Below are positions 7,243 through 7,560 of a stretch of DNA of 17,270 nt, one piece after another (position 1 is the stretch's first letter; every line of letters starts with the position of its first letter). The translations under genes were made by a program, and so were the position numbers. Under the pieces are notes generated by a model. The model searched no databases and was not told the origin of the DNA. It worked only from the letters and a program-made list of their open reading frames with translations. Origin of the DNA: a virus (taxonomy: Duplodnaviria > Heunggongvirae > Uroviricota > Caudoviricetes); the IMG/VR virus record IMGVR_UViG_2778261247_000012; one strand, given 5' to 3'.

Positions 7243-7271
7243 TTGCCTTTTTCCGGCATTTGCGGATATAG
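7243..7271 (+). promoter_or_regulatory. Candidate early promoter PLE (TTGCCT - 17 nt - ATATAG)
   Basis: Sigma70-like hexamers located about 30 nt upstream of seqA. Called on position and by eye only. Confidence 0.4.
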
Positions 7272-7303
7272 TTTTTCCGCTGCCGCAAAATCGGCAGCCG
7301 GGC

Positions 7304-7327
7304 GTAGGAACCCGAGTTACTTCAAGG
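7304..7327 (+). promoter_or_regulatory. seqA immunity target (complementary to seqB of CI RNA)
   Basis: GTAGGAA...CTTCAAGG flanks are complementary to seqB at 7463-7484. Confidence 0.6.
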
Positions 7328-7335
7328 CGACATAT

Positions 7336-7357
7336 GACGCGCCATGCGTCTTTTTTT
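7336..7357 (+). terminator. Rho-independent terminator just downstream of seqA (immunity-controlled termination site)
   Basis: Hairpin GACGC-GCCAT-GCGTC followed by a run of seven T. Confidence 0.55.
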
Positions 7358-7424
7358 ACGTCGTTGCTTCGGCACACCTGTTTTTCTGGCTGTGGTTTTT
7401 AAACCGTAGCCTCTGTCAGATAAT

Positions 7425-7503
7425 GGTGGTCCGGGCGGGGCAGCCTTCGGGCTGGCCGGTTTCCTTGAAGGCCGGTATTCCTACCCCCGTCCGGGCTACC
7501 ACC
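7425..7503 (+). ncRNA. cI: CI immunity RNA of the P4-type antisense immunity system (contains seqB 7463-7484)
   Basis: Long-range stem GGTGGTCCGGGCGGGG / CCCCGTCCGGGCTACCACC encloses seqB (CCTTGAAGGCCGGTATTCCTAC), which is complementary to both seqA and seqC. The ends are approximate. Confidence 0.5.
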
Positions 7504-7510
7504 CATGAGC

Positions 7511-7549
7511 GTAGGAACTCCAGTGGTAGCTGTAACTGTTACTTCAAGG
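7511..7549 (+). promoter_or_regulatory. seqC immunity target overlapping the RBS of the first left-operon ORF
   Basis: GTAGGAAC...ACTTCAAGGAGG is complementary to seqB and includes the AAGGAGG Shine-Dalgarno of the ORF starting at 7561. Confidence 0.6.
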
Positions 7550-7560
7550 AGGCTGCCATC

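Follow-up and report, generated by a model that had tools for sequence, protein, structure and literature searches.

Does the region between positions 7243 and 7560 of the 17,270-nt stretch of DNA analysed here (the window) hold a complete RNA immunity switch of the kind known from satellite phage P4, and, if so, would its bearer share the immunity of P4? The first-pass annotation had recognised a seqA, a seqB inside a CI RNA and a seqC, with a terminator in between, and had read this arrangement as the antisense-RNA transcription-termination system of P4. Taken together, our data make it highly probable that the region is the P4-type RNA immunity module of a P4-like satellite inserted at leuX and that it works by the P4 mechanism.

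The satellite and the layout of its immunity region

At leuX, the window carries a P4-like satellite prophage of 11.7 kb, with E. coli as its host (Table 1). The element is collinear with P4 over 183-11857, with identities of 97.8% over 4347-7363 and 97.5% over 7422-11857, or about 97.6% when int and the defence hotspot are left out. The genes vis, epsilon, orf151, orf106, alpha, sid, delta and psu are full length at 97-100% amino acid identity to P4 (tblastn), and the cis elements for replication and packaging (the crr repeats, the cos junction and the att repeats) all appear to be there. P4 gene order is kept around the immunity region, with vis upstream and kil, epsilon, orf151, orf106 and alpha downstream; the downstream left-operon genes are 98-100% identical to their P4 counterparts (tblastn), and alpha encodes 777 aa.

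The int gene (358-1624), which codes for a P4-type integrase and is the most diverged P4 gene in the window (89% DNA identity), has decayed to a pseudogene. One extra nucleotide near 802 (AAAACCAAGCC in the window versus AAAACC-AGCC in P4) produces a +1 frameshift that leaves two ORFs of 155 and 315 aa, a second 1-nt difference near 1603 alters the C-terminus, and PGAP flags int as frameshifted in the near-identical genome of IMT5155. Because of this frameshift, the prophage cannot be called fully intact and is at least partly degenerate, self-excision is probably impossible, and the switch could be under relaxed selection.

In the hotspot between psu and int, a TIR-NLR anti-phage gene of 824 aa occupies the place of gop/beta/cII of P4; TIR-NLR as cargo of the P4 hotspot has been validated experimentally (Rousset et al. 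2022). E. coli APEC IMT5155 has virtually the same sequence as the window, homopolymer lengths being the sole differences, and a difference in the length of a T run at 3662 cuts the TIR-NLR gene in two in the IMT5155 RefSeq record. Beyond attR lies a 682-aa ORF (12535-14583, plus strand, of the pair 12535-14583 and 15206-16135) without a Pfam or PADLOC match, and adjoining it is the gene of an HNH-domain protein (15206-16135, minus strand) that RefSeq names a phosphorothioated-DNA-binding restriction endonuclease; these two genes outside attR may be another defence islet of the leuX hotspot.

Table 1 Features of the immunity region and of the surrounding satellite (positions in the window)
Feature	Position	Strand	Description and basis
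PLE-type promoter	7243-7272	+	-35 TTGCCT 7243-7248, 18-nt spacer, -10 TATAGT 7267-7272
c4-a1b1 (a1/b1 targets of C4)	7266-7318	+	Rfam RF03163, 49.6 bits
Leader RNA (seqA RNA / IsrK-like short transcript)	7279-7357	+	Rfam isrK RF01394, 7279-7356, 73.4 bits, model 1-77 full length
seqA	7304-7327	+	Block 1 GTAGGAA 7304-7310; block 2 CTTCAAGG 7320-7327; exact complement of seqB
Intrinsic terminator	7336-7357	+	Hairpin GACGCGCCATGCGTC (GACGC-GCCAT-GCGTC) 7336-7350 and T7 7351-7357; terminator scan
Terminator-CI spacer	7358-7418	+	About 62 nt by Rfam boundaries (7357-7418) versus 107 nt in P4
CI RNA (C4 antisense RNA family)	7419-7506	+	Rfam C4 RF01695, 86.1 bits, E = 3.9e-16
seqB	7463-7484	+	CCTTGAAG-GCCGGTA-TTCCTAC; loop 1 CCTTGAAG 7463-7470 (hairpin loop)
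seqC	7511-7549	+	Block 1 GTAGGAA 7511-7517; block 2 CTTCAAGG 7542-7549
kil Shine-Dalgarno AAGGAGG	7546-7552	+	Sequence reading; 8 nt before ATG at 7561
kil (65 codons, Icd-like)	7561-7758	+	PGAP 'Icd-like protein'; in frame with P4 kil
eta-like ORF	7204-7758	+	In frame with kil; spans seqA, CI and seqC; Pfam Phage_ASH 118 bits
vis / orf88 (AlpA-like)	6941-7207	+	98.9% aa identity to P4 ORF88; upstream gene of the late PLL transcript
tRNA-Leu(CAA)	122-206		
att core repeats	183-200 and 11835-11852		17/18 positions match
TIR-NLR anti-phage gene, 824 aa	1700-4174	-	PADLOC PDLC03015 full length, 1878 bits; N-terminal TIR_2
cos junction	4346/4347		Comparison with P4
Two 119-nt direct repeats, 82% identical	11345-11463 and 11527-11645		Correspond to the P4 crr 120-bp repeats

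The immunity region begins with TTGCCT-18-TATAGT, the only sigma-70-like site found by a promoter scan of the 1.4 kb between 6700 and 8100, and the promoter sequence at 7243-7272 is identical to the homologous stretch of P4. The match to the isrK model starts 7 nt downstream of the -10 element (at 7279), and the hairpin at the beginning of the leader (7279-7298) is 99% paired, with five covarying pairs, in 45 relatives. All three Rfam matches of the region lie on the plus strand and above the gathering score, which is 45 for C4. The C4 family has been equated with the CI RNA of P4 (PMC3632133), which is described in the literature as a substrate of RNase P, and IsrK is regarded as a structural homologue of the seqA RNA of P4 (PMC4825925). 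In the window, a 16-bp outer stem of CI (7425-7440 with 7485-7500) encloses two hairpins, and this stem is 99.9% paired with five covarying pairs among the 45 relatives. Folding of 7425-7503 gives a minimum free energy of -52.8 kcal/mol (z = -5.27), a stability reached by none of 200 shuffles. The predicted structure includes two extra pairs inside loop 1 of seqB that are not conserved in relatives, and we therefore regard this loop as free, as in the Rfam model.

A hairpin with seven Ts does lie just after seqA, as the first-pass annotation had it; it is the only terminator-like site in 6700-8100, and it is kept in 45 of 45 relatives, with a stem that is 95% paired and a basal pair that changes from GC to CG in 15. 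We take this site to be the counterpart of P4 t1, in position as well as in sequence. Briani et al. 2000 (Mol Microbiol 36:1124) reportedly identified t1 of P4 as an intrinsic terminator between PLE and cI at which termination dependent on CI and seqA autoregulates CI and which lysogeny can do without; lytic gene expression is reportedly blocked by t4 and the Rho-dependent timm, both of which lie downstream of cI. No counterpart of the P4 t4 terminator was mapped in the window. The timm fragment of P4 (X51522 8365-8209; PMC3177188) is the 5' part of kil, and the homologous DNA of the window lies at about 7561-7717. With the t1 counterpart upstream of CI and timm downstream, it is probably not at the hairpin after seqA that immunity is enforced. 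The intervening terminator that the first-pass annotation had counted among the parts of the circuit is thus real, but it is probably autoregulatory and of the t1 type rather than the main immunity terminator. Between this terminator and CI, the spacer lacks 45 nt relative to that of P4 (L001 1658-1764), a difference that stays in frame and leaves the eta frame open; among relatives the spacer comes in two forms, of about 62-68 nt in the window and most others and of about 107 nt in P4 and 11 other types.

The RNA elements are embedded in an open reading frame. Three ATGs of the eta-like ORF at 7204-7212 overlap the stop codon of vis, and the reading frame shared with kil has no stop from 7159 onwards (7159-7758, 199 codons). 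The eta gene of P4 has 197 codons. Among 106 distinct related regions, 95% keep this frame open over the entire length of the RNA elements, versus 1-3% for the other two frames. According to the summary in PMC10111431 on P4, the same DNA encodes eta and the RNAs there, and eta is translated only from the upstream late promoter, its translation suppressing termination. RefSeq/PGAP describes 7210-7536 as an 'ash family protein' pseudogene, without an ncRNA annotation, and the immunity region of relatives is annotated as an 'Icd-like protein' of 182-199 aa. Phage_ASH and 'ash family protein' are protein-level views of the eta frame that overlaps seqA, CI and seqC, and the annotation of 7210-7536 can be corrected from an 'ash' pseudogene to an RNA immunity switch with an overlapping eta frame, in a satellite that carries a TIR-NLR defence gene.

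Matched recognition sites in the window and its relatives

The composite motif GTAGGAA-N(5-30)-CTTCAAGG has exactly three matches on the two strands of the 17,270-nt window, at 7304-7327 (plus strand, seqA), at 7511-7549 (plus strand, seqC) and at 7463-7484 (minus strand, that is, complementary to seqB), and no match in 200 dinucleotide-preserving shuffles (chance expectation 0.00). These are the sites of the first-pass annotation, in which seqB was the complement of seqA and seqC, and all of its coordinates proved correct. The complements of seqB are exact over 7 + 8 nt at seqA and seqC alike. The partner of loop 1 of seqB (7463-7470) is block 2, in seqA (7320-7327) as in seqC (7542-7549), and the partner of loop 2 (TTCCTAC, 7478-7484), which is a single-stranded joint, is block 1 of either target (7304-7310 in seqA, 7511-7517 in seqC), so that all 30 intermolecular pairs between seqB and its targets are perfect in the window. 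The duplex energies of seqB with its targets, summed over the two segments, are -22.8 kcal/mol for seqA and -24.1 kcal/mol for seqC, far below those of shuffled targets (-11.6 and -12.9 kcal/mol, respectively; sd 2.9), of which 0 and 1 of 1000 were as good.

Block 1 of seqA lies in the loop of a hairpin (7299-7314), and block 2 of seqC (7542-7549) overlaps the AAGGAGG of kil, in agreement with the earlier claim that seqC overlaps the Shine-Dalgarno sequence of the first left-operon ORF, whose ATG is at 7561. Just 3' of block 1 of seqC, CUCC (7518-7521) can pair with GGAG (7548-7551) of this Shine-Dalgarno sequence. The helix is paired in 98.9% of cells in the 45 relatives and is almost invariant, for which reason covariation speaks neither for nor against it; it could be an intrinsic helix that sequesters the ribosome-binding site, although this is not established. 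A hairpin between the two seqC blocks was also considered and was not established (78% paired in the alignment; local fold z = -0.86).

Relatives were drawn from matches in E. coli genomes and from an IMG/VR pattern scan with the conserved CI core. A scan of genome contigs with the 65-aa Kil protein confirmed at least five loci. The pair of C4 and isrK was present in 11 of 11 relatives (P4 itself, five loci from E. coli at 75-95% identity and a further five relatives from other Enterobacterales), and in each of these 11 seqA, seqB and seqC were mutually matched. The IMG/VR scan added 120 further loci (L013-L132). In one of the IMG/VR records, IMGVR_UViG_2660238469_000004 (14.1 kb), two CI cores lie on the same strand 2.6 kb apart (7277-7318 and 9907-9947), the first of which has a seqA that matches its own loops poorly; this element may be rearranged or tandem.

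Among 132-133 CI copies, 42-45 distinct seqB types can be told apart; they combine 19 different cores in loop 1 with 6 in loop 2, and 12 of the 19 loop-1 cores are found with two or more loop-2 partners. The seqB type of the window is the commonest, with 14-15 copies. An exact complement of at least 7 nt to a type's own loops was found in 89-98% of types for the seqA region and in 91-98% for the seqC region, versus 3-8% for foreign loops. In a covariation alignment with one representative of each of 45 seqB types, 99.6% of the cells of the seqA-seqB interaction are paired, with 172 double-change cells and covariation at 13 of 15 pairs; for seqB-seqC the values are 98.5%, 170 double-change cells and 12 of 15 pairs. 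When the partners were slid by 1-3 columns as a control, pairing fell to 36-51%. Complementarity is thus clearly conserved among the relatives of P4. The diversity ratio of 2.5 between specificity and other columns (P4-backbone rows) is not relied on, because the choice of one row per seqB type inflates it.

Of 5,426 complete E. coli genomes, 132 have the cassette at 7296-7560 with an identity of at least 99%, and none falls within the 95-99% band; many genomes at the high identity and none just below it suggest a discrete, maintained allele. To swap one seqB module, three interleaved sites (A1, A2, B2', B1', C1, C2) have to change in a coordinated way, and the window carries its own allele in a backbone that is 97.6% identical to P4, which suggests localised exchange of the cassette or diversifying selection. 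It is tempting to speculate, with considerable reservation, that P4-like satellites as a population share an RNA 'address code' of two modules, with at least 19 loop-1 and 6 loop-2 variants, in which every variant has to match at three sites and to leave the eta frame open and the modules are apparently reassorted, as a result either of localised cassette exchange or of diversifying selection for mutual heteroimmunity among satellites that compete for helpers. We found no systematic account of modular seqB specificity types in the open literature searched.

Specificity relative to P4 and a model of the switch

The region as a whole is 88.7% identical to the immunity region of P4, and the promoter, the leader hairpin, the stem of the t1 hairpin and the start of kil are unchanged between the two. 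The specificity sequences differ. In seqB, both loops are changed, from CCTGTGAA … TTCTCAC in P4 to CCTTGAAG … TTCCTAC in the window, and in seqA and seqC the P4 blocks GTGAGAA … TTCACAGG are replaced by GTAGGAA … CTTCAAGG, so that 18 of 45 specificity positions are unlike and the changes are matched at seqA, seqB and seqC. Neither the loops nor the targets of the window correspond to P4's own immunity specificity. Duplex energies gave no cross-pairing between P4 and the window above the shuffle background (shuffled targets about -12 kcal/mol): P4 CI reaches -13.6 and -13.0 kcal/mol on the targets of the window, and the window's CI reaches -8.7 and -12.3 kcal/mol on those of P4. With cross-pairing at the level of shuffles, we predict that the element is probably heteroimmune to P4, that is, immune to itself and not to P4.

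The model that we favour builds on the elements present in the window, their RNA families, the complementarity with its covariation, an eta frame that stays open and the P4 genes on either side; for transcription, processing, termination and repression in this strain we extrapolate from P4. By this analogy, the constitutive PLE-type promoter would transcribe the leader, and some of the transcription would end at the hairpin and T7 of 7336-7357 to give a seqA/IsrK-like RNA of about 78 nt. Transcripts that read through would mature, as they do in P4 through RNase P and 3' trimming, into a stable CI RNA of about 80 nt (7419-7506), the two unpaired segments of which (seqB) would pair with the blocks of seqA and seqC while further transcripts of this promoter are being made. 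Pairing with seqA is expected to boost termination at the first terminator, resulting in autoregulation of CI, and pairing with seqC to mask the ribosome-binding site of kil and to terminate transcription before or within kil, so that expression of kil, epsilon, orf151, cnr and the alpha primase would stay shut off. Upon activation by a helper, transcripts from the upstream late promoter would be translated as eta, coupled to vis, and would in this way escape termination. For P4 itself, PMC4825925 and PMC10111431 describe pairing of CI with seqA and seqC while the transcript is still being made, and premature termination as its result, which keeps the replication operon off.

The first-pass annotation had also held that the prophage is probably still under lysogenic control. 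As an inference from sequence integrity this is reasonable, since none of the features of the switch that the sequence reveals is damaged.

Other readings, related systems and implications

The condition of int invites the reading that the elements, intact as they are, form a relic in a decaying prophage that can no longer be mobilised, with a circuit that is idle or kept only against the toxicity of kil. The insertion near 802, the two ORFs that it leaves and the frameshift mark that PGAP sets in IMT5155 are what would be expected in this case. A broken int, however, leaves immunity unaffected; the other P4 genes have kept their full length (97-100% identity), as the element has kept cos, crr and att, the promoter does not differ from that of P4, the intermolecular pairs are perfect at 30 of 30 positions, and 132 complete E. 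coli genomes share the cassette with an identity of at least 99%. We consider a relic unlikely on these grounds. Rather than an RNA switch, the region might be merely protein-coding (Ash/Eta, or a long 'Icd-like' protein), its complementarities being by-products of coding, and the 199-codon open frame, the Phage_ASH match of 118 bits, the ash pseudogene and Icd-like CDS of PGAP and a frame open in 95% of relatives would all fit. Coding does not explain the roughly 170 double-change cells per interaction or the Watson-Crick covariation at three sites, nor does it explain the covarying CI stem and the structure-based Rfam scores. Moreover, coding does not exclude the RNA reading, since the DNA of P4 encodes both eta and the RNAs, and we give the notion that the region does nothing but code for protein next to no credence.

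The same RNA families also occur outside satellites, and the region might accordingly be sought among the anti-immunity modules of P1, P7 and N15 (c4 - icd - ant), in which an antirepressor is controlled through a block on icd translation. C4 and c4-a1b1 belong to the same Rfam clan as the RNAs of these modules, the downstream ORF is annotated as Icd-like, and the part from CI to kil is weakly similar (68-78% DNA identity) to P1-like, N15-like and lambdoid phages. Yet no ant, antirepressor or Rha gene follows downstream; epsilon, orf151, orf106 and alpha of P4 stand there instead (98-100% identity), and the entire element is collinear with P4, which makes such a module very improbable here. 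The P4-type architecture proposed by the first-pass annotation is, by contrast, borne out by the Rfam matches to C4, isrK and c4-a1b1, by the 88.7% identity to P4, by P4 gene order and by the covariation at three sites.

Set beside P4 (PLE - seqA - t1 - cI/CI RNA with seqB - seqC - kil/eta; X51522 about 8730-8360), the region has the same order and spacing of elements, the same CI fold, targets of two blocks of 7 + 8 nt, a seqC placed over the Shine-Dalgarno sequence of kil, nested eta and kil and the same flanking genes. Unlike in P4, the outer stem of CI carries several compensated changes in the window, and the specificity sequences and the length of the spacer differ. The retronphage phiR73 (Sabbattini et al. 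1996, Virology 216:389) is the published precedent for a P4-like element that combines this architecture with immunity specificity determinants of its own. The likeness to C4 of P1 and P7 extends to the RNA family and clan, to an RNA processed from the leader of the operon that it controls and to two loops with two pairs of targets (a1/b1, a2/b2), one of them over an icd-like ribosome-binding site, whereas sequence likeness is confined to the part from CI to kil and the controlled gene is the antirepressor gene ant there and a satellite replication operon here. IsrK / STnc1160 of Salmonella Gifsy-1, whose model the leader at 7279-7356 matches over its full length, is likewise followed by a CI-like processed RNA (PMC4825925), but IsrK of Gifsy-1 acts in trans and activates translation of a long isoform, leading to AntQ.

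The locus is therefore a common yet uncharacterised specificity allele of the known P4 immunity mechanism, and a relative of the c4 systems of P1 and P7. Specificity variants have already been published for phiR73, and the allele of the window implies no new mechanism; the modular, apparently reassorted specificity types extend the principle known from P1/P7 and P4/phiR73. The allele exemplifies how antisense-RNA immunity can switch specificity by matched changes at three sites. Such matched specificity decides which satellites co-reside and which exclude each other, and the specificity types provide a natural set of potentially orthogonal RNA regulators.
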